A DNA stretch of 64,000 nt, taken from Bacteroidales bacterium. Its GTDB lineage: Bacteria; Bacteroidota; Bacteroidia; Bacteroidales; UBA932. Where the stretch lies: contig JAFVOX010000004.1 in the NCBI GenBank assembly GCA_017505605.1, positions 18,479-82,478 of the forward strand, written 5' to 3'. How positions within the stretch are numbered: position 1 is the stretch's first letter; the number at the start of each line of letters is the position of its first letter. A program made the translations under genes and the position numbers. The notes beneath the pieces were generated by a model, which was given only the letters and a program-made list of their open reading frames with translations, was not told the origin of the DNA and made no database searches. Of this stretch, positions 16,258-63,295 are shown in pieces.

Positions 16258-16347
16258 TACTACATTGATATACAGTAGCTTACGCTAGATGCCTGCTGCA
16301 TCTTGACAGCAGGCATCTGACCTAAGTTGGTGAATATTAGGTTTTTA
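16258..16347. repeat. 90-bp 25-40-25 dyad element, copy A
   Basis: Boxes 16258-16282 and 16323-16347; centred 12-bp stem AGATGCCTGCTG/CAGCAGGCATCT. Confidence 0.75.
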
Positions 16348-16416
16348 CGGTTTTGAATGTCGGGACACGCGCGGGGAGTTCTCCGCGATCCCATCTTTTC
16401 CCCGGTGCGACCATAT

Positions 16417-16454
16417 AAAGAAAAGAGACTGACTAATCAGCTTTAGTCAGTCTC
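16417..16454 (-). terminator. Intrinsic terminator of the PPTase gene
   Basis: 12-bp stem GAGACTGACTAA/TTAGTCAGTCTC followed by a T-rich tract on the minus strand. Confidence 0.7.
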
Positions 16455-16476
16455 CTATGCTATATTTCAGGATTGA

Positions 16477-17112
16477 TTATCCTACGAGCCATACGAGTAC
16501 GTGGCGGTCGAACATCATATATTCAAGTTCGAACTCCTCCTCGTGCTCATCCTTGTGAATGAATGTAGCCTCGAGCTCGCCCTCTTTTCTGAGGTTGAAC
16601 TTTTCGACCTCGATCTGCTCGGCGAAATCTACGCGGTTCTGAGACATTCTCTTGAAGATGGCTTCTTTTGCACACCAGTAGATTGCGAGCTGCTCGTTTC
16701 TCTTGTCCTTCTCCAGGTCATCGATCTCATCCTCTGAGAGAGCTTTCTGCTCTACTACAGAGAAATCTCTGTCGAGAGACTCGATGTCGATACCGAGCTC
16801 CTCCTCGTCGTGGATGATGATAGCCACATACTTGTCTGTGTGGGTGATGCTGATGTTGGTGATGCAGTTCTCGAGGTAAGGCTGTCCGTTGTCGTGGTGG
16901 TTCAGGTACATCTTCTCCTCGAACACTTCGTTAAGGAGTGCCCTTACTGCAAGCTTCTGCCTTCTCTGGCTCTCGCTTCTGAAAAGTGAAATCTCTTCAA
17001 GTTCATCTGTCGGAATGGAGATGAGGTTCATCAGTTCCTCTTCCGTCTCGGTTACCTGCCATACGGCGATTTCCGCTTTGTTGTCAAGTTTCTTTCTTAA
17101 ATATAGTGCCAT
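16477..17112 (-). CDS. 4'-phosphopantetheinyl transferase (Sfp/ACPS superfamily)
   Basis: GQPYL, ISITHT, LGIDIE, WCAKEAIFK. Confidence 0.88.
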   Translation of the reverse strand: MALYLRKKLDNKAEIAVWQVTETEEELMNLISIPTDELEEISLFRSESQRRQKLAVRALLNEVFEEKMYLNHHDNGQPYLENCITNISITHTDKYVAIIIHDEEELGIDIESLDRDFSVVEQKALSEDEIDDLEKDKRNEQLAIYWCAKEAIFKRMSQNRVDFAEQIEVEKFNLRKEGELEATFIHKDEHEEEFELEYMMFDRHVLVWLVG

Positions 17113-17140
17113 ATTTTATAAATGTTCCGCTTATGATAGA

Positions 17141-17325
17141 GTGTTGCTCGGTGTTCCTATATACGACAGACCCGTGCGCGCCGACCAGGCACACACGGAA
17201 ACAACCCCATCGCTTTCGCCTGAGGTCTCGCCCATAATCATAAATATGCTGTTGGACAACGGATCGTCAGAACTGTGATCCGCAGCGATTTTCTGATCTG
17301 TTACTATAGGACTGGGAGGTTCCAC
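17141..17325 (-). ncRNA. Probable 6S-like RNA (resembles the Bacteroidales-1 RNA motif)
   Basis: About 185 nt. On the minus strand the 5' CCTATAGTAACAGATC pairs with the 3' GGTCTGTCGTATATAGG, closing a rod. -7 promoter TATCTTTG at 17360-17353. Family match is from memory, not searched. Confidence 0.65.
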
Positions 17326-17467
17326 TGTCTTAACATTCTAATAATTAGGCTGCAAAGATAGTAAAGACTTTTGATATCTCAAAATTCGGGCATTATTGTT
17401 ACTACTCTATGGGCCGCATTTTAATCCTCGCATAAGAAATGCCTCTTTTTTGTGCAAGGATTGCTGA

Positions 17468-17638
17468 AATCATTCCGATCTTTCGGATGGCACGAAGCTG
17501 AGTGCACTGGACGGTAGCGGAGAGGGCCTTGTGTATAGGGGACCGTTCAAGTACAGGAAGAGTTCCGGCGGCAGCGTCAGGGCTGTGGTCAACGGCAGTA
17601 CCCCGGCACACCCGCTTGCGACAAATGTGAATGTTTGA
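17468..17638 (+). pseudogene. Degenerate fragment of an RHS/YD-repeat protein
   Basis: Start-less frame NHSDLSDGTKLSALDGSGEGLVYRGPFKYRKSSGGS..., resembling the Y-x-Y-L-x-DGTKL...Y-x-G-x-F-x-Y segment of Bacteroidales RHS cores. Confidence 0.55.
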
Positions 17639-17698
17639 TTTCACACCGGAGCCAGATGAGCGGATTTTTCATTATCTTGCAGGCAATAGTGAAATATT

Positions 17699-18790
17699 AT
17701 GATGAAGCTGGTGTTTCTTTTGATTCCGCTGGTTTATCTGGCTGGGAACGGATATCTGTACTGGAGGGTGCTGCAGATGGCAGGAGCCCTGCCGGTGTGG
17801 GTCAGGTGTGTTGTCTCGGTGCTGTTCTGGATTGCGGCATTTTCGCTTTTCATATCCGTCGGCCTCCGTGATTCGGGTCTTCCCGGAGCTTTTCTGAAGG
17901 CTATGTACCTCATAGGCTCGGTATGGATGGTCTTCCTTCTGTATTCGGTGCTGCTGCTCATAATATCTGACGTGGCCAGGATCTTCATCCCGTCGCTTGG
18001 ACCTGCCTTGAAATATGCAGCTCCTCTTGCTGCGTGTATCCTTCTTTATGGATATGTCAATTACAGGAATCCGAAGGTGGAGCATATCGACATCGTCCTG
18101 GATAAGCCTGCAGACGGGATTACGGCCGTTGCAATCAGCGATGTGCATCTTGGCTATGGCACGGGAGTGCGGGCCTTGAAGAAGTATGTGGATCTGATAA
18201 ACGGGCAGAAGCCGGATGTGGTGTTCATAGTCGGAGACCTCATCGACAACAGTGTCGAACTTCTGCTGGACGAACCTTTTGCCGAGGCATTGGATGGCCT
18301 CAAGGCCCCGATGGGGGTCTATATGGTTCCGGGCAATCACGAATTCATAAGCGGAATCGAGGCGTGTGAGTCCTTCCTTGCAGGTACGGAGATCCATATG
18401 CTGCGTGACAGCGTGGAATCCTTGCCTTGCGGCCTTCAGGTCATCGGCCGTGACGATCGCTCCAATCCGCATCGGCTTTCCCTTGAGGAACTGCTTGAAA
18501 AGACCGATACATCACGTCCGCTGCTGGTGCTTGACCATCAGCCATACGGGCTGGCACAGGCGGATTCGCTGGGCGTGGACATACAGGTCAGCGGGCATAC
18601 CCACAGGGGACAGATATGGCCTTTGAACTGGCTGACAGATGTTCTTTTTGAGCAGAGCCACGGCTATCGCAAGTGGGACAATGCCCATATCTACGTCTCC
18701 AGCGGACTCTCTCTCTGGGGACCTCCCTTCCGTATAGGAACACGCAGCGATATGGCGGTACTTCACATTTATGGCTCTGAACAGGAATAA
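17699..18790 (+). CDS. Membrane-anchored metallophosphoesterase (YkuE-like)
   Basis: Four N-terminal TM segments; SDVHLG, GDLID, PGNHE, HQP, SGHTHRGQ. Confidence 0.9.
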   Translation: MMKLVFLLIPLVYLAGNGYLYWRVLQMAGALPVWVRCVVSVLFWIAAFSLFISVGLRDSGLPGAFLKAMYLIGSVWMVFLLYSVLLLIISDVARIFIPSLGPALKYAAPLAACILLYGYVNYRNPKVEHIDIVLDKPADGITAVAISDVHLGYGTGVRALKKYVDLINGQKPDVVFIVGDLIDNSVELLLDEPFAEALDGLKAPMGVYMVPGNHEFISGIEACESFLAGTEIHMLRDSVESLPCGLQVIGRDDRSNPHRLSLEELLEKTDTSRPLLVLDHQPYGLAQADSLGVDIQVSGHTHRGQIWPLNWLTDVLFEQSHGYRKWDNAHIYVSSGLSLWGPPFRIGTRSDMAVLHIYGSEQE

Positions 18791-18893
18791 AAAACAAATT
18801 CTTTTTAACACGGTAATGATTTTAAACCGGAATACCATTAAATTTATTATATTTGCCAAGATTTGAAAACAACGCTAACATTATAGAATAATT

Positions 18894-19880
18894 ATGGAAT
18901 TTTTGACTAACGACAAGCTCGTGATCGTAGGTGCCGGTGGCGCTATCGGATCAAACATGGCTCAGACAGCTCTTATGCTCGGCCTTACTCCAAACATCTG
19001 CCTTTATGACATTTATGGACCAGGCGTAAACGGTGTTGCAGAGGAACTCTATCACTGCGCATTCGAGGGTGCCAACATCACTTGGACAACAGATCCTGAG
19101 GTTGCTTTCACAGGTGCAAAGTACATCATCTCTTCAGGTGGAGCTCCACGTAAGGAGGGTATGACTCGTGAGGACCTCCTCAAGGGTAACTGCCAGATCG
19201 CTGCTGAGTTCGGTGACAACATCAGAAAGTATTGCCCAGATGTAAACCACGTTGTTGTGATCTTCAACCCGGCTGACGTAACAGCTCTTACAGCTCTCAT
19301 CCGTTCAGGTCTCAAGCCAAGCCAGCTTACTTCACTTGCTGCTCTCGACTCAACTCGTCTGCAGTCAGCTATCGCTAAGGAGCTCGGTGTTCCTCAGTAC
19401 AAGGTAGAGAACGCTCGTACTTACGGTGGTCACGGTGAGGCAATGGCAGTGTTCGCTTCTAAGATCACTGTTGACGGCAAGCCGCTCGCAGAGTACAACA
19501 TCCCTGAGGACAAGTGGGCTGAGATCAAGCACGCTACTATCCAGGGTGGTTCAAACATCATCAAGCTCCGTGGACGTTCTTCATTCCAGAGCCCATCTTA
19601 CCAGTCAGTTCTTATGATCCAGGCTGCTATGGGTGGTCCTGAGTTCCACTGGCCGGCAGGATGCTATGTAAACACTGAGAAGTATCAGAACGTTCTTATG
19701 GCTATGCCTACAACAATCGACGCTACAGGTGTTCATTTCGGTGAGGTTGAGGGTACTGCAGAGGAGATCGCTGCTCTCGATGCTTCTTACGCACACCTCC
19801 AGGTTATGCGTGATGAGATCATCTCTCTCGGCATCATCCCACCGGTATCAGAGTGGAAGACTATCAATCCTAACCTCTAA
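18894..19880 (+). CDS. mdh: Malate dehydrogenase
   Basis: GAGGAIG, PRKEGMTREDLL, NPAD, LDSTR, GGHGE; strong codon bias. Confidence 0.92.
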   Translation: MEFLTNDKLVIVGAGGAIGSNMAQTALMLGLTPNICLYDIYGPGVNGVAEELYHCAFEGANITWTTDPEVAFTGAKYIISSGGAPRKEGMTREDLLKGNCQIAAEFGDNIRKYCPDVNHVVVIFNPADVTALTALIRSGLKPSQLTSLAALDSTRLQSAIAKELGVPQYKVENARTYGGHGEAMAVFASKITVDGKPLAEYNIPEDKWAEIKHATIQGGSNIIKLRGRSSFQSPSYQSVLMIQAAMGGPEFHWPAGCYVNTEKYQNVLMAMPTTIDATGVHFGEVEGTAEEIAALDASYAHLQVMRDEIISLGIIPPVSEWKTINPNL

Positions 19881-19905
19881 TAGAGATTGCTAAGCATTTA
19901 ATAAT

Positions 19906-19938
19906 GGCGATGTTCGGTGCTCCGATACATCGCCTTTT
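19906..19938 (+). terminator. Hairpin with short T-tract after mdh
   Basis: GGCGATGT-TCGG...CCGA-T-ACATCGCC followed by TTTT. Confidence 0.55.
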
Positions 19939-19954
19939 ACTGAATATAAAGACT

Positions 19955-22168
19955 ATGACCAGGAAAATTACAACACTTATTTCAGCAGCTGCGCTTCTGC
20001 TGGTTGCTTCCTGCTCTCCGAAGAGCGAAATCGACAGGAAGGTTGACGACCTTCTCAGCCAGATGACCCTCCGTGAGAAGATCGGTCAGATGAATCAGGT
20101 CTCAGGCGGTGCCTGGGTTGCAGAGGCTGCTGCCAAGGGAGAGGTAGGATCTATCCTCAACTGTGCAGACGCAAAGGAAATCAATGCTGTTCAGCGTGCG
20201 GCTGTAGAGGAAAGCCGTCTTGGTATTCCTATCATTGCGTCGCGTGACGTGATCCACGGTTTTCACACTATGTTCCCTATTCCACTCGGTCAGGCTGCTA
20301 CATTCAACCCTGAGCTTGTGGAGAAGGGTGCGCGTATTTCAGCTGTAGAGGCAACTGCTGCCGGTATCAGATGGACATTCTCTCCAATGCTTGACGTTGC
20401 CCGTGACCCACGTTGGGGCCGTGTAGCAGAGGGCTCGGGTGAAGACCCTTATCTAGATGTCCAGATGGGTGTCGCAATGGTAAAGGGTTATCAGGGAGAT
20501 GACCTGAGCGATCCTACAGCACTTGCTGCCTGCATCAAGCACTTTGTAGGTTACGGTGCTGCAGAAGGTGGACGTGACTACAACAGCACAATGATTTCTG
20601 AGCGCTCGCTCCGCAACACTTATTTCCCTGCGTTCAAGGCTACTGCAGAGGCTGGTGCCGCTACTCTTATGACTTCTTTCAACGAAATCGACGGTATTCC
20701 TTCTACAGGTAACAAGTGGCTCCTCAAGGATGTCCTCCGTGACGAGTGGGGCTGGGACGGTATGGTCGTTACCGACTGGAATTCTGCAGGCGAGATGATC
20801 GCTCACGGATTCTCACGTGACCTCAAGCACACAGCGGAGCAGGCTATCAACGCCGGTGTGGATATGGATATGATGTCATATGGCTTCATCGAGTATGCCG
20901 AGGCTCTCGTAAAGGAGGGCAAGGTTTCAGAGAAGGAGATCGACCGTGCTGTCCGCAACATCCTCAAGCTCAAGTTCGAGCTTGGTCTCTTTGAGAACCC
21001 ATATGCTGACGAGACTCTCTCGGCGCAGGTTGACTATGCTCCAGAGCATCTTGCAGCAGCAAAAGAGGCTGCCGTACAGTCTGCTATCCTTCTTCAGAAC
21101 AACAACAATGTCCTTCCTTTGGACAAGGCAAAGACTATCCTCGTGACAGGTCCTCTTGCAGATGCTCCATACGAACAGATGGGTACCTGGTCTTTCGACG
21201 GCCAGAAGGAGCACACAGTGACTCCTCTTGCTGCACTCAGAGAAGAATACAATGTAATCTGGGTTCCAGGTCTTGAGTACAGTCGTGACAAGAGTACTGC
21301 ACAGTTCTCTAAGGTGCGTTCTGCAGCTGCCAATGCCGACGCTGTGGTAGTGTGCGTAGGTGAGGAGGCTATTCTCTCAGGTGAGGCTCACTCGCTCTCT
21401 AACCTCAATCTTCAGGGTGCTCAGAGCGAACTTATTGCAGAGGCAAAGAAGACAGGAAAGCCAGTTGTTGTAGTTGTGATTGCAGGCCGTCCTCTTACAA
21501 TCGAGCGTGACCTTGCAAACTGCGATGCTATGCTTTACTCTTTCCATCCGGGAACTATGGGTGGTCCTGCACTTGCTGACCTTATCAAGGGTAAGGCTGT
21601 CCCTTCAGGAAAGACTCCTATGACCTTCCTCCGTGAAGCAGGACAGGCTCCTTTCTATTACAACCACAACAACACCGGCCGTCCGAACAACGGTTCAGAG
21701 ACTCTTATCGACGACATTCCTATCGCAGCAGGCCAGACTTCGCTCGGCTGTACTTCGTACTACCTCGACTCAGGCTACGGCCCGCTCTTCCCATTCGGTT
21801 ATGGTCTCAGCTACACAACTTTCGAGTATGGTGCACCGGTGCTTGAGAAGGCAGAGCTTTCTGAGGATGATGTGATCCGTGTAAGCTTCGACCTCAAGAA
21901 CACAGGCAAGGTTGCCGGTACAGAGATCGCTCAGCTCTATGTCCAGGACTGTGTGGGCTCTGTTGTACGTCCTGTCAAGGAACTCAAGAGATTTGCTCGC
22001 GTGGAGCTTGCAGCAGGTGAGACCAAGACAGTGACATTCGAGCTTCCTGTAGCGGAACTCGCATTCTGGAACATAGATATGGAGTACGTTGTCGAACCAG
22101 GTGATTTCCGTCTCTGGGTAGCGGGTGACTCTGCATCAGGTGAGCCTGTAAACTTCGTAGTGAAATAA
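19955..22168 (+). CDS. GH3 beta-glucosidase (BglX-like), lipoprotein
   Basis: Lipobox LVASC; DVIHG, RDPRWGR, KHFVGYG, VVTDW (nucleophile), PLFPFGYGLSYT, C-terminal Fn3-like domain. Confidence 0.92.
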   Translation: MTRKITTLISAAALLLVASCSPKSEIDRKVDDLLSQMTLREKIGQMNQVSGGAWVAEAAAKGEVGSILNCADAKEINAVQRAAVEESRLGIPIIASRDVIHGFHTMFPIPLGQAATFNPELVEKGARISAVEATAAGIRWTFSPMLDVARDPRWGRVAEGSGEDPYLDVQMGVAMVKGYQGDDLSDPTALAACIKHFVGYGAAEGGRDYNSTMISERSLRNTYFPAFKATAEAGAATLMTSFNEIDGIPSTGNKWLLKDVLRDEWGWDGMVVTDWNSAGEMIAHGFSRDLKHTAEQAINAGVDMDMMSYGFIEYAEALVKEGKVSEKEIDRAVRNILKLKFELGLFENPYADETLSAQVDYAPEHLAAAKEAAVQSAILLQNNNNVLPLDKAKTILVTGPLADAPYEQMGTWSFDGQKEHTVTPLAALREEYNVIWVPGLEYSRDKSTAQFSKVRSAAANADAVVVCVGEEAILSGEAHSLSNLNLQGAQSELIAEAKKTGKPVVVVVIAGRPLTIERDLANCDAMLYSFHPGTMGGPALADLIKGKAVPSGKTPMTFLREAGQAPFYYNHNNTGRPNNGSETLIDDIPIAAGQTSLGCTSYYLDSGYGPLFPFGYGLSYTTFEYGAPVLEKAELSEDDVIRVSFDLKNTGKVAGTEIAQLYVQDCVGSVVRPVKELKRFARVELAAGETKTVTFELPVAELAFWNIDMEYVVEPGDFRLWVAGDSASGEPVNFVVK

Positions 22169-22189
22169 ATCCAAATAAACATATACACA

Positions 22190-23584
22190 ATGAGAAAAAT
22201 ACATTCGTTTATTTTTGCGGCATCAGCTGCCCTTCTTTCAGTGGTTTCCTGCCAGGAGCCTGTAGAGGAAGTAAAGCCTTTGGAAATCGCCGCTTACACA
22301 ATTGCAGAGTCTGCCGAGTTTGGTGACAAGGTGGACTTTACAGTAACATCAGAAGTTGCACAGAATGTGACTGTAGCCATCGTGAAGGATGGAAAGCAGT
22401 TTGCGTCGGCAACTGTAAGAGAGGCACAGGAAGGCGTTTTTGCAGGCAGCCTTGACATTCCGTATCAGAAGAACATCGAGGACGGCCAGTATGACGTAAT
22501 GGTTATGGCTATGGGCGCAGGTACAGACCGTGCTGAGAAGACTCTCAAGATTGCGCTTGCTCATCCGACATTCACTTCTGTGGACTTCGTTGCGGGTTCT
22601 GACAGATTTGCGCTTTCATCATCAGATGCAGCTTCTCCACTTGAGGCTTACACCTGGTCCTATGTAGGAAAGCTTCCTGCAGCGCTTTCAGGCTATTTTG
22701 AGGCAAAGACCGCAGACGGTTCTGTGTACAGCTTCGGTGGCAGCAATGTAGACAACATCGAGTTCGGCAACACAACTGCTGTAGTGCTTTACAATTATGA
22801 GTCTGAAATCCTCGAAGGTACCATTACTTTCGATGTGAAGTCATTCCAGGTCAAGTACCCTCTTGAGGCTATGTGGGTTGAGGTGCCTGAGACTACAGAT
22901 CCTGCATATCCGGGTACAGCGGATGTTGAGTTCAAGAAAGGACAGGTTGTAAGTTTCGCAGGTCTTGGAAACCTCTGGGTTGACATCGACTTCTTCGACA
23001 ACAACGGTGACGGCACTTACACATTCCGTGCGGAGGGTGGCCTTTACAGACTTACAAACCAGGCTGACTGGGGCTCACTCAGAATCGAAAGACTTTCTGC
23101 AACTACAGGCGACCTCGGTACCTTCACTTGGGATGAGATGGGCAACATCACTTCAAATGAGGCCATCTGGTGTCTTGGAAACTACAATTTCGGAAAGCCT
23201 GACAAGCGTGCCGTGCGTGACGGAAGAATATTCTCGGATTGGGAAACATTCGACGGCTACTGTATGGCTAAGATAGATGACTACAAGTATCAGATCACCC
23301 TTCGTGTGTACAACTACGCTTCATTGAAGTTCTTCCAGACAAAGCTCAACTGGGGTGACATCTACAGTGCAAACTATGACACTGCCAACAGTACATTCGA
23401 GAACTGCTACCTCATCAGCACAGCAGGTTCAGACGGAAACATCCAGCAGGGCCAGGGTATCACAGACCCTAACAAGTTCGAGTATCCTACAACAGGTGTA
23501 GTGCTTCGCTTCACTTTTGATGTTACAGATCCTCTCGGAATCAAGGCCACTGTCGAGGATATCACTGACCAGAACGTTATGTAG
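22190..23584 (+). CDS. PUL-associated lipoprotein, probable surface glycan-binding protein (DUF5121/DUF5125-like)
   Basis: Lipobox VVSC; aromatic beta-rich modules (WVDIDFF, IWCLG, LKFFQTKLNWG); lies inside the PUL. Confidence 0.6.
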   Translation: MRKIHSFIFAASAALLSVVSCQEPVEEVKPLEIAAYTIAESAEFGDKVDFTVTSEVAQNVTVAIVKDGKQFASATVREAQEGVFAGSLDIPYQKNIEDGQYDVMVMAMGAGTDRAEKTLKIALAHPTFTSVDFVAGSDRFALSSSDAASPLEAYTWSYVGKLPAALSGYFEAKTADGSVYSFGGSNVDNIEFGNTTAVVLYNYESEILEGTITFDVKSFQVKYPLEAMWVEVPETTDPAYPGTADVEFKKGQVVSFAGLGNLWVDIDFFDNNGDGTYTFRAEGGLYRLTNQADWGSLRIERLSATTGDLGTFTWDEMGNITSNEAIWCLGNYNFGKPDKRAVRDGRIFSDWETFDGYCMAKIDDYKYQITLRVYNYASLKFFQTKLNWGDIYSANYDTANSTFENCYLISTAGSDGNIQQGQGITDPNKFEYPTTGVVLRFTFDVTDPLGIKATVEDITDQNVM

Positions 23585-23592
23585 ATTCTTCT

Positions 23593-25611: not shown

Positions 25612-25615
25612 CTTT

Positions 25616-30672: not shown

Positions 30673-30746
30673 CGGGGTGTGGCGCAGTTGGCTAGCGCAT
30701 CTGGTTTGGGACCAGAGGGTCCTGTGTTCGAGTCACAGTACCCCGA
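30673..30746 (+). tRNA. tRNA-Pro (TGG)
   Basis: Acceptor CGGGGTG/TACCCCG; anticodon arm TCTGG-TT-TGG-GA-CCAGA; T arm CTGTG-TTCGAGT-CACAG. CCA not encoded. Confidence 0.96.
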
Positions 30747-30839: not shown

Positions 30840-30929
30840 TAAACCACTGTCTCACAGGCTTTTAAGCTGAATCACCTGTGGCAGATGGAGCAGGTGATTC
30901 AGTGTAATTATTTGATAGGTAATCATTTA
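30840..30929. repeat. 90-bp 25-40-25 dyad element, copy B (lolD leader)
   Basis: Boxes 30840-30864 and 30905-30929; centred stem CTGAATCACCTG/CAGGTGATTCAG. Confidence 0.75.
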
Positions 30930-42363: not shown

Positions 42364-42472
42364 AACTGCGCAGTTTTTTATATGAAAAATGACACAGTGG
42401 TGGGGCTAAAAGGCAGTTTCGCTTGAAAACTAGGACCACTGTGTCGATTTTAGGGTTGAAAATGACACAGTG
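42364..42472. repeat. 36-bp hairpin doublet downstream of the RAYT-like gene
   Basis: Units 42364-42399 (degenerate left arm) and 42437-42472; 73-bp period. Confidence 0.85.
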
Positions 42473-42495
42473 GTGAAGCTGGTGTGTAAAATTTG

Positions 42496-43422
42496 CTAAA
42501 ATGGATAGGACATTGCAAGACATCTTCGTATTTGTGCTTCACTGAGGTGTCTGGTACGGTGCAATTCCAGAGCTGTCAGCTGCTTCTCCCTTTCTGTGAG
42601 CTGGTAGACAGAATGTCTCCCGTACCTGCTGCGTGCAAGTTGATCTAATTCTGTACAAAGATCTATGTCAGACACTTTCCTGTAGTCCGCTTTGCCCGCT
42701 TCGAAGGAAACCATTCTGTCGATGCTGTGTAGTCTTATTCCGTTCTCTATCTCGGTCATAGTGACAGGTAAGTTTCCATCTCCGTCTTTTCTCTGTTCTT
42801 CTTTCCATTCTTCAGAAGACCTGCGGGTCATATAATAGTTGAATGCACGAGGAGAAATGAACAGATCTTCGACTTGGGGAATGTCAAGAACTGTTTCTCT
42901 GAGGAACACCCCGCTTTCGGACATCTTGTAACTATCGGGATACTCAGCCCGTCTTCCGATGTGCTTTGAATAATGGCACTCAAGAAGGAGGTCCTCCTTA
43001 TGGAACTTTCCCATTTCTGATCTGAAGATTGCGTTTGCGGAGCAGTGAGGATAGGCATATGGAATGGACACTACCCCGTGGTGCACAGCATTTCTGAGAG
43101 TGTAGCTCATAGCTGCCAGTTTGTGATGGTGCCCGACGACTTCAAGTGTGAAGTGCTGGTTTTCGCCAAGTCTGCCATCTCTTTGGTACTTGTTGTTGAA
43201 ATACATACTATATGGCTGCCTGAAATGCCACATAAATTCTTTGGGATCAGAAGTCTGGATGACCTGATGTGTATGTGTTGCCATAAAAGCCTCGACAAGA
43301 CCAGTAGATCCGGTCTTATGTAACGCCAATGCAAAACAATTGAATCCTCGGTTGTAATCTTCCAGATCACGGAACATTATCTCATCTCCTGCCGAAAGGC
43401 AGACGTGGTAGGTCTTTTTCAT
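42496..43422 (-). mobile_element. REP-associated tyrosine transposase-like (RAYT / Y1 HUH) with C-terminal extension
   Basis: YHV..IMFRDLEDY; HUH-like FMATHTH; YSMYFNNKYQRDGRL; catalytic Tyr in SYTLRNAVHHG; YPHCS. Hairpin repeats on both sides. Confidence 0.82.
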
Positions 43423-43559: not shown

Positions 43560-43668
43560 CACTGTGTCAATTATTACTATAAAAATGGTACAGTGATAGG
43601 CTAATAGCGTGTTTTTGAGTGAATTGTATGAGCACTGTGTCGATTTTAGGGGTGAAAATGACACAGTG
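43560..43668. repeat. 36-bp hairpin doublet upstream of the RAYT-like gene
   Basis: Units 43560-43595 and 43633-43668; the second is 35/36 identical to 42437-42472. Confidence 0.88.
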
Positions 43669-43681
43669 GTTGACCGGCAAG

Positions 43682-53407: not shown

Positions 53408-53422
53408 TATCGACGAGAATAT

Positions 53423-53716: not shown

Positions 53717-53738
53717 AATATATTCCCATATATATTGT

Positions 53739-53775
53739 ATTCGACCCACAAATTTTTTATATTTGCGGGTCGAAT
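53739..53775 (+). promoter_or_regulatory. Hairpin overlapping a -7 promoter (RND terminator and promoter of the next operon)
   Basis: ATTCGACCCACAAAT/ATTTGCGGGTCGAAT stem containing TATATTTG at 53758-53765. Confidence 0.55.
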
Positions 53776-53812
53776 GCCTTTTTATATAGGTTATTAGTAC
53801 TGATTTAATATA

Positions 53813-54469: not shown

Positions 54470-54501
54470 AACAGAACGTAATTAACTTAAATTTTATAGA
54501 T

Positions 54502-54816: not shown

Positions 54817-54828
54817 TTTTTTTATAGT

Positions 54829-55446: not shown

Positions 55447-55466
55447 GATTTTAACAGAACGATTGG

Positions 55467-56000: not shown

Positions 56001-56002
56001 TA

Positions 56003-56992
56003 ATGGACCTTAAGGCGATCAAGGAATATCTAGGGAATGACTGGGTGGCGGTGCAGAAGCATATTACTTCTGCGCTGCGCAGTGACATTGACCTTCTCAA
56101 TGCGACAAATGATTCCATCCTGTCGCATTCGGGAAAGCAGTTACGTCCTCTTCTGACGGTGCTTTTTGCACGCGCCTGCAACCCGGCATTGGCTGCCCTT
56201 CCGGCATCCTCAGCCGGCTATGCCGCCGCTTCGGAGCTTCTGCACAACGCTACGCTTCTGCACGACGATGTGGCTGACGACAGCCACCAGCGCCGAGGTG
56301 TGCCGACCATTATGTCCTTGATGGGACCTTCGGTGTCTGTTCTTGTGGGTGACTACTGGCTCGTAAAGGCTATGGAACTCATCCTGGACGGTTCCGGAGA
56401 TGACACTACGGTGATCCGACTGTTCTCCCGCACATTGAGCGATCTGGCTGAAGGAGAGATGCTTCAGCTCCAGAAGGCGCAGAAGGGAGACACCAATGAG
56501 CAGGACTATCTCAGGATAATCTACAACAAGACAGGCTCGCTTTTCGTGGCTGCCTGTATGTCTGGAGCCATTTCTGTAGGCGCGACTGAAGAATACAGAA
56601 ATGTGGCGCGTGAATATGCAAGGACTTTGGGCCTGGCATTCCAGATCAAGGATGACATCCTTGATTATGCCGGCACCGAGTCTGTCGGAAAGCCTCTGGG
56701 TGTGGACATTCTTGAGCAGAAGATCACTATGCCTCTTCTTGGCGCTTTCGTAAATGCAGGTGCAGATGAGGAGAAGCGTGTCCGTGCTATGGTGCGTGAC
56801 ATCCTTGATCACCCTGAGTACCGTGACGACATAGTAGCGTTTGTAAAAGAGAACGGAGGCCTCGAATATGCGGTCGAGCGTCTCGATGATTATGTGAACC
56901 AGGCAGTCAAGGTGCTTGAAGTCCTTCCGGATTCGAAAGAGAAGGAACTCCTTGTCCAGCTTGCGTATTTCACAGCTAAAAGAGTAATGTAA
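56003..56992 (+). CDS. ispB: Polyprenyl diphosphate synthase
   Basis: GKQLRP, LLHDDVAD..RRG, FQIKDDILD, GKPLGVD. Confidence 0.88.
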   Translation: MDLKAIKEYLGNDWVAVQKHITSALRSDIDLLNATNDSILSHSGKQLRPLLTVLFARACNPALAALPASSAGYAAASELLHNATLLHDDVADDSHQRRGVPTIMSLMGPSVSVLVGDYWLVKAMELILDGSGDDTTVIRLFSRTLSDLAEGEMLQLQKAQKGDTNEQDYLRIIYNKTGSLFVAACMSGAISVGATEEYRNVAREYARTLGLAFQIKDDILDYAGTESVGKPLGVDILEQKITMPLLGAFVNAGADEEKRVRAMVRDILDHPEYRDDIVAFVKENGGLEYAVERLDDYVNQAVKVLEVLPDSKEKELLVQLAYFTAKRVM

Positions 56993-58048
56993 ATGAGGTT
57001 TGCTGATGTCATAGGAAATGCGGAGGTCGCCCGTACGCTGGTCAATATGGCCGACAGCGGAAGGGTGGCTCACGCTATGCTGATGTACGAGAACGAGGGC
57101 TGCGGCGCCCTTGCTCTTGCATTGGCTTATGTACAGTACCTGAACTGCAGCAATCCTTCAGGCGGTGACTCCTGCGGCGAATGTCCTTCCTGCCGTCAGA
57201 TGTCCAAGCTGATCCATCCGGATGTGCATTTCGTCTTTCCTGTAAACAAGGGACCTAAGACTTCTGATGACAAGCCGACATCCGAATCATATATAAAGTA
57301 CTGGAGGGAACTGGCTGTTGCAGATCCGTATTTTACGGAATCAGATCTGCAGAAAGCCATTGGAATTGAAAGCAAAAACGGCCTTATAGCTGTTGCTGAG
57401 GCCAAATCCATAATAAATAAGCTGTCTCTGACTGCTGTTGGTGACGGCTACAAGGCGGTAATCTTTTATCTGCCTGAGAAAATGAATCAGGAGACTGCCA
57501 ACAGACTTCTGAAGATGGTGGAGGAACCACCTGTGCAGACGTTGTTCATATTCATAACTCACGCACCGGAGAAGGTCCTTCAGACCATATTTTCGCGATG
57601 CCAGAGTGTGCGTGTGATGCCTCTGACGAAGGAGGAGGCGGCCCGCGTCAACGCTCTGAAGCCGCAGTCGGAAGATTCGGATGCCGATGTGTTCCAGGAA
57701 CTTTTCTATGACCTGATGAACAGTATCGTGTCACGTGACCTTATGGCTGCCCTTGAGTGCGGCGAGGCAATAGCTGCATTGGATTCCCGTGAGAAGCAGA
57801 AGGCTTTCTGTGCCTATGCGGGAGATTGTATGAGAAAGATATTTATGATTCAGCGGAATATGCCGCAGATCGCTGGTGTTGAGGATGGGGAACAGGAGTT
57901 CTACGCCTCCCTGGCACAGAAATGCGGACAGGAATTCTGCTCGAAATCAATGACTAATATAGAGAAGGTGGTGGCGATGATCGACAGGAACGTAAATTCC
58001 AAGATCCTCTTCTGCGACCTTGTCAACCGAATGTTTTTAAGCATTTGA
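56993..58048 (+). CDS. holB: DNA polymerase III subunit delta'
   Basis: CGECPSC, HPDVHFVFP, ANRLLKMVEEPP, TIFSRCQ; adjacent to ricT. Confidence 0.9.
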   Translation: MRFADVIGNAEVARTLVNMADSGRVAHAMLMYENEGCGALALALAYVQYLNCSNPSGGDSCGECPSCRQMSKLIHPDVHFVFPVNKGPKTSDDKPTSESYIKYWRELAVADPYFTESDLQKAIGIESKNGLIAVAEAKSIINKLSLTAVGDGYKAVIFYLPEKMNQETANRLLKMVEEPPVQTLFIFITHAPEKVLQTIFSRCQSVRVMPLTKEEAARVNALKPQSEDSDADVFQELFYDLMNSIVSRDLMAALECGEAIAALDSREKQKAFCAYAGDCMRKIFMIQRNMPQIAGVEDGEQEFYASLAQKCGQEFCSKSMTNIEKVVAMIDRNVNSKILFCDLVNRMFLSI

Positions 58049-58077
58049 TACCTTTTAAAATTGCGAAACTTAAGTGT

Positions 58078-59247
58078 ATGAGTGAAAGTAAGATATATGA
58101 CTGCTCACGCGGCTGTGAGGTAGAGAGGAACGAAGCAGGGGAGGTGGAGTGTACCTACCGAAGAGGCTGCTGCAAGCTTGAGGTATATGATTGGCTTGAA
58201 GGAGTAAACCAGGAGCAGTACAACGACTATTTCGAGGTCCGTTTCAAGAACACCCGCAAGGGAATCTACAAGAACGGATCTGGACAGAGCATAAAGACCG
58301 GAGACCTCGTCATCGTAGAAGCGGCAAACGGACACGACTTGGGCATCGTTACCCTTGAAGGACCTATTGTCGGACGTCAGATGAAGAGCAAGAGGATAAA
58401 TCCAGAGACCTTTGAGTTCAAGAGGATCTACCGCAAGGCCAAGCTTTTCGACATCGAAAGATGGCAGGAAGCGATTGCCCGCGAGCACGAGACTATGATC
58501 CGCTCGCGTCAGATCGCTGCTGAGCTCGGTCTTGATATGAAGATCGGTGATGTGGAGTTCCAGGGAGACGGATCAAAAGCTATATTTTACTATATCGCTG
58601 ACGGTCGTGTGGACTTCCGACAGCTTATCAAGGTCTTTGCTGAGGAGTTCCGTATCAGGATCGAGATGAAGCAGATCGGAGCCCGCCAGGAAGCCGGCCT
58701 CATCGGAGGCCTGGGCGTCTGCGGCCGCGAGCTCTGCTGTTCCAACTACATTTCCAGTTTCCAGTCCATTACAACTTCTGCTGCACGCTGCCAGGATCTA
58801 TCTCTGAATCCGACCAAGCTTGCAGGCCAGTGCGGCAAGCTCAAATGCTGTCTGAACTACGAGACAGCAGCATATATGGATGCTCAGACACGAATCCCTA
58901 AGGTACACAATCCTCTTGAGTTTGAAGATGGTCTTGCATATCTGATGAAGACAGACATTCTTCGTGAGATTATGTACTTCTCGTATGACCCGTCGTCACT
59001 TGCAAACCTCTATCCTCTTTATGCTGAGGATGTCTGGGATATCATAAGGATGAACCGTAACGGTGAGAAACCTGCATCTCTGAAGAATGAAGAGCCTGCA
59101 ATGCCGGAGTTCGTGACAGCAGTGGGAGATGACAGCATCAGCCGTTTCGACGAGACACGCAAGCGCAAGAACAAGAGAAAGAAGAAGTCAGGCAACAAGA
59201 ACAAGTCAAAAGGAGAACCGAAATCAAATGGGAAAGGACAAGCTTAG
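58078..59247 (+). CDS. ricT: PSP1-domain protein RicT/YaaT
   Basis: RVDFRQLIK, GVCGRELCC, KLAGQCGKLKCCLNYE. Confidence 0.9.
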   Translation: MSESKIYDCSRGCEVERNEAGEVECTYRRGCCKLEVYDWLEGVNQEQYNDYFEVRFKNTRKGIYKNGSGQSIKTGDLVIVEAANGHDLGIVTLEGPIVGRQMKSKRINPETFEFKRIYRKAKLFDIERWQEAIAREHETMIRSRQIAAELGLDMKIGDVEFQGDGSKAIFYYIADGRVDFRQLIKVFAEEFRIRIEMKQIGARQEAGLIGGLGVCGRELCCSNYISSFQSITTSAARCQDLSLNPTKLAGQCGKLKCCLNYETAAYMDAQTRIPKVHNPLEFEDGLAYLMKTDILREIMYFSYDPSSLANLYPLYAEDVWDIIRMNRNGEKPASLKNEEPAMPEFVTAVGDDSISRFDETRKRKNKRKKKSGNKNKSKGEPKSNGKGQA

Positions 59248-60052
59248 AAAATTCCGTGAGAATGAGACCTTCAAGTGTCTCATCCAGCCTTCGACTTCTG
59301 AGGTCCTGAACTGTGACCACCCTCTGAAAGGCAACTGGGGCCGCGAGGTGTTCGGCAATGACAACCCTATCGTAGTCGAGCTCGGCTGCGGCAAGGGTGA
59401 CTACACTGTGGATCTTGCCGAGCGCAACCCTTCGTGCAACTACATCGGAGTGGACATCAAGGGCGCCCGTCTGTGGAAAGGAGCAAAATATGCCACTGAA
59501 CACGCTCTGGGCAATGTTGCCTTCCTTCGTACACGTATAGAATTCATCGAATCATTGTTTGCAGAAAACGAGATTTCGGAAATATGGATCACTTTCGCCG
59601 ATCCTCAGATCGGCCGTGAAAAGAAGCGCCTGACGGCTCCTCTCTTTATGAACCGCTACCGCAACTTCCTCTGCAAGGGTGGTATAATTCATCTCAAGAC
59701 CGACAGCCGCTATCTCCACGAGTACTCGCTGGCTATGGCTCAGCAGAATGACCTGCACATCCTTGCAGCAGCTACAGACATATACGGTGCTGACCGTGAG
59801 AGACTCTATGACAGCGAGCTTTCGTCAATATGCGGACGTGCCGCTGTGGATGCCCTCTTCGAGGTGCAGACCTTCTACGAATCACAGTACCTTGCTCAGG
59901 GCTTTCCGATCACCTACCTGTCTTTCCTGGCAGACCACGATGGCGACTACCTCTCTCCTGAATGGGCTGAAGACCTCTGGAAGGATGAGGGCCATCATTT
60001 CGTCATCCCTTCAGGTCTCGCAGTAGCTTCAAAATTCTACCCCGAAGGATAA
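59228..60052 (+). CDS. trmB: tRNA (guanine46-N7)-methyltransferase
   Basis: MGKDKLRKF, ELGCGKGDY, GVDIKGARLW, WITFADPQ, HLKTD. Confidence 0.93.
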   Translation: MGKDKLRKFRENETFKCLIQPSTSEVLNCDHPLKGNWGREVFGNDNPIVVELGCGKGDYTVDLAERNPSCNYIGVDIKGARLWKGAKYATEHALGNVAFLRTRIEFIESLFAENEISEIWITFADPQIGREKKRLTAPLFMNRYRNFLCKGGIIHLKTDSRYLHEYSLAMAQQNDLHILAAATDIYGADRERLYDSELSSICGRAAVDALFEVQTFYESQYLAQGFPITYLSFLADHDGDYLSPEWAEDLWKDEGHHFVIPSGLAVASKFYPEG

Positions 60053-60067
60053 TAGCCAAGTGTAGCG

Positions 60068-60157
60068 TAACAACTTGAATACTAACACCTTATAGAATAT
60101 GCCTGCTGTCTTCTGTCAGCAGGCATATTTGATATATTGTTGATTTTCAGGTGATTG
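60068..60157. repeat. 90-bp 25-40-25 dyad element, copy C (trmB/miaA convergent gap)
   Basis: Boxes 60068-60092 and 60133-60157; centred 13-bp stem AATATGCCTGCTG/CAGCAGGCATATT. Confidence 0.75.
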
Positions 60158-60161
60158 TTGG

Positions 60162-61241
60162 TTACACTGCGGTCCAGTGGATGGTTATGCCTTTGCGTTC
60201 CATACCGCGGAACCAGGTCATCTGGCGTTTTGCAAACTGGTGGATGGCTGTGGCAAGCTGTGTGCGCATCTGGTCGAAGGTAAGCTCTCCTGTTATGTAC
60301 TGGGTCACGAACTTGTACTCCAGGCCGTAGTAGATAAGGTCTTCTGCAGGAATCGGTTTGTGGCCCGGTGCCAATGCGGGATGGGTTCCGTCAATCAATC
60401 CTTTGATTTCCTCTACCATACCTTCTTCGAGTCGGGCATCCAAGCGCTTGTCAATCTTTGCATTTCGGACTTCTCTGTTTACCAGGGTGCCTATGTAGTA
60501 AGTGTTTTTAGGAAGATAGCACGAGCGCTGGACAGGATGTCCGGCTTCGTAAGTCGCTATCTCCAAAGCGCGGATGAGGCGCTTGCGGGTGTCGTAGTCG
60601 GTGTTGTTGTGCAGTGGCTTCAGAGAGGCCAGTTGGGCGATAAGTTCTTCATCGGATTTTTTTTCAAGTTCCTCCCTCAGCTGCGGATCCGGCGGAACTT
60701 CCGGCAGGGAGTAGCCGCAGGTGGCCGCTTCTATATAAAGACCGCTTCCTCCGCAAAGGATAGGGATTCCACCTCTGTCGACTATGTCCTTATATGCCTT
60801 TTCGAAATCCCTTTGATATTCGAAGATATTGTACTTTGTGCCGGCATCCACTATATCCATAAGATGGTATGGAATCTCCTCATATTCAGACAGATCCTTT
60901 CCTGTACCGATGTCCATTCCCCTATATACCTGCCTTGAATCCGCTGAAATGATCTCCGCGCCTGACTGAGGCTTTCGGAGAGGGTGCGGCAAGAACCCCT
61001 GCGGCCAGGGGGGTAGCACGCTTCCCGCACCCTCTCCGAAAGCTTCGCAGGAGAGGAGTTTGTTGATCTGGCGGGCGAGTTGGACTGCATAGCGGGTCTT
61101 TCCGGATGCTGTCGGTCCGAGGACGCAGATCAGGTCAATCTCTCCGGAGAGGTATTTGTCGAGAAGTTCCCTGACATTTATTTCTTCTGCAGGAGGTAAC
61201 TCTGCCATCGGGGGTATCGGAGTGAATGGTTTCTTTGCCAT
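60162..61241 (-). CDS. miaA: tRNA dimethylallyltransferase, with in-frame palindromic insertion
   Basis: GPTASGKT, IISADSRQVYRGMDIGTGK, CGGSGLY, FAKRQMTWFR. The -7 promoter at 61273-61266 supports the start at 61241. Confidence 0.93.
   Translation of the reverse strand: MAKKPFTPIPPMAELPPAEEINVRELLDKYLSGEIDLICVLGPTASGKTRYAVQLARQINKLLSCEAFGEGAGSVLPPWPQGFLPHPLRKPQSGAEIISADSRQVYRGMDIGTGKDLSEYEEIPYHLMDIVDAGTKYNIFEYQRDFEKAYKDIVDRGGIPILCGGSGLYIEAATCGYSLPEVPPDPQLREELEKKSDEELIAQLASLKPLHNNTDYDTRKRLIRALEIATYEAGHPVQRSCYLPKNTYYIGTLVNREVRNAKIDKRLDARLEEGMVEEIKGLIDGTHPALAPGHKPIPAEDLIYYGLEYKFVTQYITGELTFDQMRTQLATAIHQFAKRQMTWFRGMERKGITIHWTAV
60971..61043. repeat. Palindromic element inside the miaA coding sequence
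   Basis: Perfect 19-bp IR GCTTTCGGAGAGGGTGCGG / CCGCACCCTCTCCGAAAGC with an internal CCCCT-GCGGCC-AGGGG hairpin. Confidence 0.85.
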
Positions 61242-61346
61242 AGGTTCTTGATTAGCCTTCATATGCAAAGATAGTATTTTATGCAGCATTTTGGAAAAAA
61301 GCACTACATTTGCATTCTTGAGTAATAATTTTTGAATATACAGGAT

Positions 61347-61796
61347 ATGCCGAAAGCAAAGAGCAGTGTAGAGATAAAGAACAGGAGGGCTTCGTTTGAC
61401 TATGAGTTCATCGAGACCTTCCAGGCGGGAATTGTGCTGACCGGCACAGAGATAAAGTCCATCAGGGCAGGCAAGGCCTCGCTTGTGGACACATTCTGCT
61501 ATTTCAACAACAACGAGCTGTATGTCAAGAATATGCACATCGCCGAGTACTGGTGGGGAAGCTGGGGAAAGCACGATCCGCGCCGCGACCGCAAGCTGCT
61601 TCTGACCCGCAAGGAGCTGAACAAGCTTCAGCGTGCGGTGAAGGAAAAGGGTCTTACCATTGTCGGAGTGAAACTGTATATAGCGGATAACGGATATGCC
61701 AAGATCCTGATAGCCCTGGCGCGAGGAAAGAAGGAGTACGACAAGCGTGCTTCCATAAAGGAAAAGGACCTCCGCCGAGAAATGGAAAGGATATAA
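61347..61796 (+). CDS. smpB: SsrA-binding protein
   Basis: [37 protein letters not shown]. Confidence 0.96.
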
Positions 61797-61834
61797 AAAC
61801 ATTAAAGGAAGCCGCTCGGCTTCCTTTAATGTTT
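61797..61834. terminator. Bidirectional terminator between smpB and metK
   Basis: Perfect 18-bp IR AAACATTAAAGGAAGCCG / CGGCTTCCTTTAATGTTT. Confidence 0.75.
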
Positions 61835-61837
61835 ACA

Positions 61838-61863
61838 GTCATTCCCGGCCTGACCGGGAATCT
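61838..61863. repeat. Single (C)GTC-type REP-like palindrome
   Basis: GTCATTCCCGGCCTGACCGGGAATCT, 24/26 identical to 38959-38984. Confidence 0.8.
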
Positions 61864-61872
61864 CATATATCC

Positions 61873-63192
61873 TTAAAGTCCGAAGGACTCTTTGATCATA
61901 TCCACTGAGTCGAGGAGTTCCCATCCGAAGAACTGTACGAGTTCCTGAACCATCTTGCCGTCTTTGCGGATGGCTACGCTTGCCTTGTAAGGGTCGCGTC
62001 CCACGTGGCCGTATGAGGCTGTTGGCTCGTAGATAGGCTTCTTGAGGTTGAACTTCTCGATGATCTTTGCAGGACGGAGGTCGAAGAGGGAGTTGATCTT
62101 CTCTGCGATCTCTGCGTCGCTCAGACCGTTGACTGCTGTGCCGTAAGTGTTTACGTAGATACTTACAGGACGTGCGACGCCGATTGCATATGAGAGCTGT
62201 ACAAGCATTTCGCGTGCTACGCCTGCAGCTACCATATTCTTTGCGATGTAACGTGCTGCGTATGCTGCAGAACGGTCAACCTTTGAAGGATCCTTTCCTG
62301 AGAATGCTCCACCACCGTGTGCTCCCTTTCCGCCGTAAGTGTCAACGATGATCTTACGTCCTGTAAGACCTGTGTCACCGTGAGGACCACCGATCACGAA
62401 CTTGCCTGTAGGGTTTACGTGAAGGATGTGGTCACCCTTGAAAAGAGCTGCCTCCTCAGGGCTGAGTGACTCGATGAGCATAGGAAGAAGGATATTCTGG
62501 ACATCCTCGCGGATCTTTGCCTGCATAGCCTCGTCCACACGCTTCTGACCGAACTGCGAGCAGCCGTCCTCATAGCTCATATTGCCGAGGGAAGCCGGAG
62601 TGAACTCATCGTGCTGTGTAGAGATCACTATTGTGTGTACTCTTACAGGCTGGTTAGTCTCGCCGTCGTACTCGATAGTGAACTGTGACTTAGAGTCCGG
62701 ACGGAGGTAAGGCATAAGCTCCGGAGTCTGCTTGCGGATCTTGGCAAGGAGAAGGAGGGCCTGGTGTGAGAGTGCGAGCGGAAGCGGCATATACTCCTTT
62801 GTATCGCCGCAGGCATAACCGAACATCATACCCTGGTCGCCGGCACCCTGTGCGTCAGCGTCTTCGCCGACTACACCGCGGTTGATGTCCACGCTCTGCT
62901 CGTGAAGAGCCGAGAGGATACCGCAAGAGTTGCCGTCGAACATATACTCTGCCTTGTTGTAGCCGATCTTGTTGATTACCCGGCGGACTGTCTTAGGAAT
63001 GTCCACATAGGCGTCCTCTGAGCGTACTTCGCCACCTACAACTACGAGTCCGGTGCTGCAGAATGTCTCGCAAGCCACCTTTGATTCAGGATCCTGGCGG
63101 AGGAATTCGTCGAGGATCGCGTCTGAAATCTGGTCGGACACCTTGTCTGGATGTCCTTCTGATACTGATTCTGATGTAAACAGATAATTCAT
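61873..63192 (-). CDS. metK: S-adenosylmethionine synthetase
   Basis: [49 protein letters not shown]. Confidence 0.98.
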
Positions 63193-63205
63193 ATTCTTAA
63201 AATTT

Positions 63206-63295
63206 TAAACACTTATCTATCAATGTGTTGCTATAAATCACCTGCTCCAAATGCCGCAGGTGATTCAGCGTAAGCTGCTGGGAGACAGGGGATTG
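63206..63295. repeat. 90-bp 25-40-25 dyad element, copy D (metK leader)
   Basis: Boxes 63206-63230 and 63271-63295; centred stem AATCACCTGC/GCAGGTGATT. Close to copy B in reverse orientation. Confidence 0.75.

Follow-up and report, generated by a model that had tools for sequence, protein, structure and literature searches.

The window analyzed here is a 64,000-nt stretch (positions 18479-82478 of contig C40) of genome G000, a 2.14-Mb metagenome-assembled genome (MAG) of an uncultured ruminant-gut Bacteroidales that comprises 54 contigs and is 82% complete. It carries four dispersed 90-bp dyad elements, A to D, each composed of two 25-bp boxes and a hairpin between them (Table 1). Elements A and C lie in gaps between convergent genes, B lies 6 nt upstream of the ATG of a lolD-like gene, and D lies 13 nt upstream of the ATG of metK. 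All these positions had been given in an earlier reading of the window (the original prediction) and every coordinate proved exact. We consider it likely that the dyads are repetitive extragenic palindromic (REP)-type non-autonomous repeats of two Bacteroidales systems of REP-associated tyrosine transposases (RAYTs; Y1/HUH enzymes), with boxes presumably bound by protein dimers. Thus, among the options listed in the original prediction, a non-autonomous mobile unit is the right one, and its statement that the elements belong to no named family does not hold, as they are REP-type elements of RAYT/TnpA-REP systems (PMC3333891, PMC3116915, PMC6006769).

Architecture of the elements and extent of the family

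Copies in G000 were counted with exact hairpin patterns and then by nhmmer profile searches. The profile searches revealed 47 dispersed loci, three partial copies included: 26 loci carry the A/C hairpin, ATGCCTGCTG-N8-CAGCAGGCAT, and 21 carry the B/D hairpin, AATCACCTGC-N10-GCAGGTGATT. The exact patterns ATGCCTGCTG-N7/8-CAGCAGGCAT and AATCACCTG-N12-CAGGTGATT occur 19 and 18 times, respectively, and each of the reversed patterns 0 times. The two hairpin subtypes postulated from the window are therefore real, and they correspond to two transposase paralogues described below. The predicted 25-40-25 layout is found in both, being built of 31+28+31 nt in the A/C and of 30+30+30 nt in the B/D subtype. 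Folded as single-stranded DNA, the central hairpins of elements A to D have z scores between -3.7 and -5.3, none of 200 shuffles being as stable. Element C, in addition, has a terminator-like score on the + strand. Rfam covariance models run on the window matched only a tRNA and a SAM-II riboswitch and none of the elements.

Read in the direction of the hairpin, the arms of both subtypes share one 25-nt palindromic box, YAA-N4-YTGA-N3-TCAR-N4-TTA (with alternatives: Y-A-A, N4, Y-T-G/A-A/T, N3, T/A-C-A-R, N4, T-T-A). Four positions are near-invariant among 72 arms (A1 in 68, T8 in 68, A16 in 71, and T23 in 70), and positions between the motif letters are near random. The boundaries of the elements are sharp and coincide with the outer YAA and TTA; the linkers between box and hairpin are 5-6 nt long and variable in sequence. 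Since the boxes keep this distance from the hairpin, they are always separated by ~40 bp, whatever the hairpin. The whole element is symmetric with respect to the strands, and copies are found in both orientations.

The spacing was further analyzed genome-wide, as the original prediction had proposed. For this purpose we used a box matrix (a position weight matrix), collected its matches on opposite strands, and plotted a histogram of the gap between them. The histogram has a sharp peak, with 166 pairs in three bins against a background of ~17 per bin. This peak consists solely of A/C and B/D hairpin copies; the scan revealed no third class of hairpin between such arms in G000. The claim that the geometry is fixed in the absence of sequence identity stands, with a correction for a few copies that share one arm at 77-90% identity, namely a four-member cluster and a pair identical at 27/30 positions. 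The partner arms of these pairs have a mean identity of 0.51, compared with a background of 0.485 for all arm pairs.

Two simple interpretations of the arms were rejected. The box is not a small hairpin, as its symmetric positions show no covariation, and the arms are not a direct target duplication, as their similarity is at background. Complementarity between two arms of one element is also at background (0.345 vs. 0.360 between different elements).

The elements of G000 are located in 20 convergent, 23 tandem, and 2 divergent intergenic contexts, with 0 inside open reading frames (ORFs), and many of them abut or supply the stop codons of neighboring genes. They form clusters on several contigs (C17, C49, C40), and in one convergent gap (G000:C8:26580-26810) a B/D and an A/C element are 50 nt apart.

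RAYT genes and their hairpins across species

A search for a linked recombinase-type gene, another check suggested originally, identified a Y1/HUH transposase gene between B/D copies. Three genes were found by the PF01797 search of G000, the best match being at G000:C7:36994-37272 within a 318-aa ORF, RAYT-1, that has B/D elements on both sides. The upstream element overlaps its ATG by a single base, the last of that element, and the downstream one starts 5 nt past its stop codon. The protein matches Pfam Y1_Tnp with E=3e-9, contains the motifs DHIH and YLLNNP, and has H69, H71, and Y129 invariant in 36 homologues. The top structural match of its AlphaFold model (pLDDT 88) is E. coli TnpA-REP with the REP hairpin (4ER8_A; E=5e-6, target TM 0.73), followed by ISDra2 and IS608 transposases with E ~4e-4. 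The C-terminal half of RAYT-1 is helical and conserved (the columns of alignment A2 are on average 56% identical), and, as read by eye, it may end in a helix-turn-helix-like stretch.

A paralogue, RAYT-2, is encoded in G497, a water-buffalo MAG with nucleotide identity to G000 of ~96%. RAYT-2 is 47% identical to RAYT-1 and has A/C hairpins on both sides; the genome carries 17 A/C and 21 B/D copies. Thus, each subtype has its own RAYT paralogue beside it, and the two subtypes represent two RAYT systems.

Homologues of RAYT-1 are numerous in metagenomes (>900), and some of them are annotated as 'REP element-mobilizing transposase RayT'. A homologue that is 75% identical has the same B/D hairpin on its flanks. 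Homologues with 65-68% identity have the hairpin AATCGCCTGCG...CGCAGGCGATT, which differs by a compensatory A:T to G:C change; they adjoin pnp, and the translation of the RAYT-1 neighbor in G000, read by eye, suggests a resemblance to the C-terminus of PNPase. In homologues of 35-51% identity, the hairpins are unrelated; such homologues were found in 30 congeners out of the 60 sampled and in another 32 records. The hairpin sequence thus co-varies with RAYT across species. None of 24 congeners and 16 other families examined has the exact A/C or B/D hairpins, and in a set of 400 congeners only 3, and G497 in addition, possess them.

The boxes are conserved over a wider range than the hairpins. 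For this comparison, a box matrix trained on G000 only was used to score 77 distinct hairpins with a stem of >=9 bp located near RAYT-1 homologues of ~60 other species, a box being counted at >=8 bits. Both boxes are present at 40 of the 77 hairpins and at 11 of 385 random axes. In these 40 cases the gap between boxes is exactly 40 nt in 22 and 39-41 nt in 36, and it remains ~40 nt for stems of 9 bp as well as of 20 bp. A scan of genomes with the strict two-box pattern gave 7 matches against 1-4 in controls, this probe being too insensitive. In some relatives, a short stem (TGG...CCA) closes the structure outside of the boxes. Just downstream of one RAYT homologue, at positions 2473-2771 of L032 (from G010:C18; L numbers denote extracted loci around Y1 genes), there are three to four tandem box-hairpin-box copies, the arms of which are nearly identical and which have CTGGTC...GACCAG as a closing stem. 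This array, unlike the copies of G000, has a structure that suggests a young age.

Table 1. Dyad elements, Y1 transposase genes, and neighboring RNA features (positions refer to the window unless a contig is given)
Feature	Position	Strand	Remarks
Element A, A/C-type dyad, 90 bp	16258-16347	no strand	Between convergent genes
A left box, TAC-N5-TGA-N3-ACA-N5-TTA, 25 bp	16258-16282
A hairpin ATGCCTGCTG-CATCTTGA-CAGCAGGCAT	16289-16316		Folding z -5.3
A right box, 25 bp	16323-16347
Element B, B/D-type dyad	30840-30929		Between tRNA gene and lolD-like start codon
B left box	30840-30864
B hairpin AATCACCTGT-GGCAGATGGA-GCAGGTGATT	30870-30899		Folding z -3.9
B right box	30905-30929
Element C, A/C-type dyad	60068-60157		Between convergent genes
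C left box	60068-60092
C hairpin ATGCCTGCTG-TCTTCTGT-CAGCAGGCAT	60099-60126		Folding z -4.6
C right box	60133-60157
Element D, B/D-type dyad	63206-63295		Between terminator of SAM-II riboswitch leader and metK start codon
D box on metK side	63206-63230
D hairpin AATCACCTGC-TCCAAATGCC-GCAGGTGATT	63236-63265		Folding z -3.7
D box on riboswitch side	63271-63295
RAYT-1, 318 aa	G000:C7:36925-37881 (= L011:1432-2388)		B/D elements on both sides
RAYT-2	G497:C65:16747-17631		A/C hairpins on both sides
Y1 paralogue, 315 aa	G000:C9:458-1405 (L012)		Direct copies of hairpin repeat CTCACGGGTGT-N11-ACACCCGTGAG on flanks
Third Y1 paralogue, 316 aa	G000:C2:6710-7660 (L013), with L013:2024-2968		Adjoins ~900 bp of tandem repeats, several frames open
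Fourth RAYT-like gene, 308 aa, HTH-Q motif	42496-43422	minus	Missed by PF01797 genome search
tRNA gene	30673-30746	+	Own terminator-like hairpin, ~95 nt upstream of element B
SAM-II (long-loop) riboswitch	63396-63454	-	Upstream of metK
Terminator-like hairpin of the SAM-II leader	63320-63341		Upstream of metK

Gain, loss, and selection on existing copies

Orthologous loci in related MAGs (G082, which is 94% complete, G287, and further genomes designated by G numbers) were compared, again in line with the original proposal, and differ in the presence of the elements. Element A is inside a ~575-nt block that G497 and G082 lack at this site. The site of element B is filled in G497 and G287 and empty in G082. 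Element C is present in G497 and absent in G082, where 7-16 nt separate the stop codons. Element D is present in G497, and its site is empty in G287 and several congeners; at the empty sites the distance from the SAM-II riboswitch terminator to the metK ATG is 10-25 nt. This terminator-metK stretch is an insertion hotspot, with unrelated palindromes in G082, G013, G054, G060, and G066 and no insert in G287, G075, G063, and G065. An A/C element with 26 additional nt in G497 (C73) is absent from G000. No target duplication was observed at the four filled/empty junctions compared, and thus a Y1 enzyme fits, whereas a MITE (miniature inverted-repeat transposable element) of the DDE type is disfavored.

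One insertion is informative about the mobile unit. A B/D copy in G082, compared with the empty site in G000 (flanks 95% identical), corresponds to a 67-nt insertion consisting of one arm, the hairpin, and 6 nt, and its 'second arm' is already present in the empty allele. Together with the copies that share a single arm, these alignments lend moderate support to a process in which one arm is copied at a time.

To estimate constraint, we used 15 orthologous pairs of elements from G000 and G497 with flanks 94-100% identical. The pairs contain 0 substitutions per 300 stem positions (0%), 12 per 450 box motif positions (2.7%), 34 per 300 other arm positions (11.3%), 10 per 162 linker positions (6.2%), and 12 per 138 loop positions (8.7%). 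An intact stem was a selection criterion for the G497 member only, not for the G000 member, and therefore the absence of stem changes on the G000 branch alone, where ~17 would be expected at the arm rate, still counts. We conclude that purifying selection acts in place on the stems and the box motif positions, and thus the copies are maintained and not merely decaying. The selection for architecture suggested in the original prediction is borne out by these rates. Constraint on existing copies exceeds that predicted from selfish copying. Birth-and-death turnover of whole copies was rejected as the reason for conserved stems, given that no two copies are alike over both arms and that the stems are conserved in orthologous copies.

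The loops behave differently from the stems they close. In element C the loop is inverted between G000 (TCTTCTGT) and G497 (ACAGAAGA), with the arms in place, and a second inversion was found at G000:C10:31184 (CAGATG vs. CATCTG). Two loop inversions imply that the palindrome is processed, or recombines with itself, more often than it mutates.

Solo boxes, proposed mechanism, and relation to known systems

Outside the 47 elements, the box matrix matches 372 sites at >=12 bits and 90 sites at >=16 bits, compared with ~95 and ~12 sites, respectively, for the control matrices (reversed, complemented, column-permuted, and re-spaced). The strict pattern AA-N5-TGA-N3-TCA-N5-TT occurs 43 times in G000, of which 38 occurrences are outside the elements and mostly inside genes (e.g., G000:C12:17169, C18:139723, and C34:21120), and 79 other spacing combinations, including those that keep the codon phase, occur 0-12 times each. 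The over-representation of the box as a solo site is ~10-fold. Neither the half-site alone nor the TGA-N3-TCA core alone is enriched in G000. In the sum of 60 congeners there are 1460 strict boxes and 381 matches to the in-phase N6 control, and the excess is also observed in two genomes of the same order. A phylum-wide box count is uninformative, because its reversed control is ~3-fold too low, AGT/ACT being rarer than TGA/TCA; spacing controls were used instead. The excess is only weakly associated with this RAYT clade (4.2-fold in genomes where it was detected and 3.4-fold in the others), and the 'RAYT-negative' label is itself unreliable, since G072, with 63 box sites and no RAYT homologue detected, has elements built in the same way around another hairpin. 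Many of the G072 sites are solo sites in unique sequence.

The IHF consensus is WATCAR-N4-TTR. The half-site of the box, W-A/T-T-C-A-R-N4-T-T-A, resembles it in letters and spacing, this being a resemblance only; the whole box reads as a palindromic form of the consensus. The symmetry of the box, and the fact that each half-site conserves no more than four or five contact-like positions, make each box a candidate duplex site for a dimeric protein.

From these data, the following mechanism can be proposed for the RAYT systems: (i) RAYT would use its catalytic domain, as E. coli TnpA-REP and IS608 do, to recognize the GC-rich hairpin as single-stranded DNA and to cut near the hairpin foot, (ii) the single-stranded hairpin would most likely be read on the lagging-strand template, as in the analogous systems, (iii) a dimeric protein bound to the duplex DNA of each box would prepare the central palindrome for processing or keep it in place for this, and (iv) the copied unit could be one arm with the hairpin, docking 5-6 nt from an existing box, so that the second arm may come from a solo box already at the target. 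More speculatively, protein binding to, and possibly bending of, the two boxes, whose centers are 65 bp apart, might favor extrusion of the palindrome or hold it for the enzyme. One-arm copying combined with solo boxes would explain both the exact geometry and the unrelated arms. Tentatively, the box may be the site of a conserved dimeric protein, either of nucleoid type or the C-terminal part of RAYT, and the elements may be domesticated nucleoprotein cassettes, with two bound sites around an extrudable palindrome, that the host would maintain by selection and that RAYT would spread and renew arm by arm via solo boxes; we regard this extended version as possible but doubtful. If true, a second protein-DNA interaction would determine the geometry of a REP system, and a transposase would have seeded a family of sites across the chromosome, including hundreds of solo sites mostly in genes.

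A related alternative, to which we assign a clearly minor probability, is target capture, in which only the hairpin and one arm are mobile and land at a fixed distance from a solo box, so that the conservation of the boxes reflects the choice of targets. It is in agreement with the abundance of solo boxes, the copies sharing one arm only, and the one-armed insertion of 67 nt in G082 that adjoins box-like DNA present at the empty G000 site. However, the empty sites for C (in G082), D (in G287), and G497:C73 (in G000) have no box, and the difference at these three sites is a single block of 90-116 nt that includes both arms. Moreover, motif positions evolve four times slower than their neighbors, for which target choice alone is insufficient. 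The elements could also be sites of regulation or termination in the host instead of mobile DNA, their hairpins being bidirectional intrinsic terminators or protein sites that have evolved in place, with a transposase-like gene incidentally located between two of them. The enrichment at 3' ends and in convergent gaps, the terminator-like properties of element C, and the purifying selection on existing copies would agree with such an origin, but identical 28-30-nt hairpins at 37 loci cannot arise independently. Presence/absence differences between genomes ~96% identical, the separate Y1 paralogue of each hairpin type with both changing together across species, and the location of B and D in 5' leaders just before start codons further argue against it, and we consider it improbable.

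The two remaining explanations appear less probable still, and about equally so. The YAA...TTA ends, the length of ~90 bp, the intergenic location, and an IHF-like site as in Correia elements resemble what is expected of a DDE-transposon MITE (terminal inverted repeats TAA...TTA, TA target duplication) of the Correia or Tc1/IS630-like kind. None of the filled/empty comparisons revealed a target duplication, though, and the linked gene encodes a Y1/HUH enzyme, with no DDE parent element seen; in addition, the arms are kept at the motif only and the center is invariant, the opposite of the pattern of a decaying MITE. The stable hairpin and the two copies in 5' leaders would suggest that the family consists of structured small RNAs or of cis-regulatory RNA elements. 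This is hardly compatible with the lack of Rfam matches, the symmetry of the elements on both strands and their occurrence in either orientation, the lack of covariation within boxes or between arms, and the loops that invert between close genomes.

The RAYT systems proposed here share many features with the REP/BIME-RAYT 'REPtron' of E. coli and other Proteobacteria: extragenic hairpins in tens of copies (PMC3333891, PMC3479197, PMC2817692), a Y1/HUH gene that has its own type of repeat on its flanks, with one family per paralogue, location at 3' ends, the absence of target duplication, and a 4ER8-like N-terminal fold. In contrast, the RAYTs of REPtrons are usually about half the size of the present 318-aa protein with its helical C-terminal half, and the present system differs further in the two 25-bp boxes 40 bp apart around each hairpin and in its Bacteroidales host. 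REPINs (PMC3116915, PMC8049555) are likewise palindromic, ~90-110 bp long, and serviced over long persistence by a single-copy, vertically inherited RAYT. Their outer REPs are conserved and their center is variable, whereas in the present elements the center is invariant and the arms keep the motif only. REPINs also form a cloud around a master sequence, whereas the present copies differ almost wholly at non-motif positions.

In IS200/IS605 elements (IS608, ISDra2), a Y1 enzyme reads an imperfect single-stranded hairpin with TTAC upstream; in the present repeats, TTA(C) is part of a palindromic box on both sides. The distinct left and right ends and the travelling transposase of IS200/IS605 are both absent from the present repeats. 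In RIB/RIP (BIME-1) elements of E. coli, REPs are combined with an IHF site at 3' ends of transcription units. The present elements likewise combine a REP hairpin with an IHF-consensus-like site at 3' ends of transcription units, but the order in RIB/RIP is REP-IHF site-REP and here it is site-hairpin-site, with a site that is a full palindrome. RIB/RIP elements are cited in the classification of Quentin et al. 2018 (PMC6006769). The same work describes subclass 2.6 in Bacteroidetes, with 'atypical secondary structures', a median length of 179 aa, the motifs NH[LIV]H and YIH[QN]NP, and listed repeats that are 24-nt GC hairpins with a GCTAG foot, as well as subclass 2.1, with a C-terminal HTH/DnaA-like tail and reported without REPs (PMC6006769). 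RAYT-1 agrees with TnpA-Y1 class 2 in its HuH, Y-x-x-x-N-P, and W motifs, its occurrence in Bacteroidetes, and its non-GTAG flanking structures with other genomic copies. It shares the long C-terminal tail with subclass 2.1, from which it differs in having repeats. Judged by the published description, RAYT-1 does not fit subclass 2.6, given its length of 318 aa, the DHIH and YLLNNP motifs, and different repeats. The box-hairpin-box build, its conservation across species, and the solo boxes were not found described in the literature searched, the coverage of which was incomplete.

Several observations weigh against the assignment of the dyads to RAYT systems with protein-bound boxes. The best NCBIfam model for RAYT-1, REP_Tyr_transpos, gives 57.5 bits and does not reach the cut-off of 80. 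Its C-terminal domain has nothing above threshold in Pfam, and when folded alone (pLDDT 75, pTM 0.38) it gave no Foldseek match with E<0.8 in the PDB. RAYT-2 was not found in the 82%-complete G000 assembly, and no RAYT-1 homologue (E<=1e-30) was found in G082 despite its 13 B/D and 2 A/C copies; these may be orphan repeats, or the RAYT gene may be unassembled. The GTAG/GTGG of canonical REPs at the 5' foot is not in the present elements, and an element is not a canonical REPIN doublet, since its arms are not complementary. There are no full-length recent duplicates in G000, no two copies being alike over both arms, and hence current transposition is only conjectural. One-arm copying is not the whole story either, because several empty sites are without a box and two-armed elements come and go. 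Finally, the protein binding the box is hypothetical, with the C-terminal half of RAYT or a conserved host protein as candidates, and only one HU-family gene (C12:61130-61396) was found in G000.

Whether REPs and RAYTs are selfish or domesticated is an old question, and existing work concerns almost exclusively Proteobacteria. Three properties of the present systems make this question testable: the enzyme-specific hairpin and the clade-wide boxes are separable by sequence alone, direct comparative evidence shows selection at exactly the stems and the boxes, and a second protein-DNA interaction, with solo sites throughout the genome, is a candidate. The results are also relevant for annotation of gut and rumen Bacteroidales MAGs, where such repeats occur at gene ends and in leaders, as in the case of element D between the SAM-II riboswitch and metK, and where they are probably a cause of assembly breaks as well.

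The other Y1 paralogues of G000, located on contigs C9 and C2 and in the window, have different flanking repeats without boxes (Table 1). The repeat at the C9 gene has at least 7 copies in G000, none of them with boxes. The RAYT-like gene in the window is flanked (42364-42480 and 43560-43670) by doublets of the hairpin CACTGTGTC...GACACAGTG, and a doublet of this type is also present at 16002-16156, beside element A. One B/D copy in G082, like element B in the window, adjoins a tRNA gene end. Downstream of the C2 paralogue there is apparently a HigB/HigA-like pair of small genes, as read by eye.

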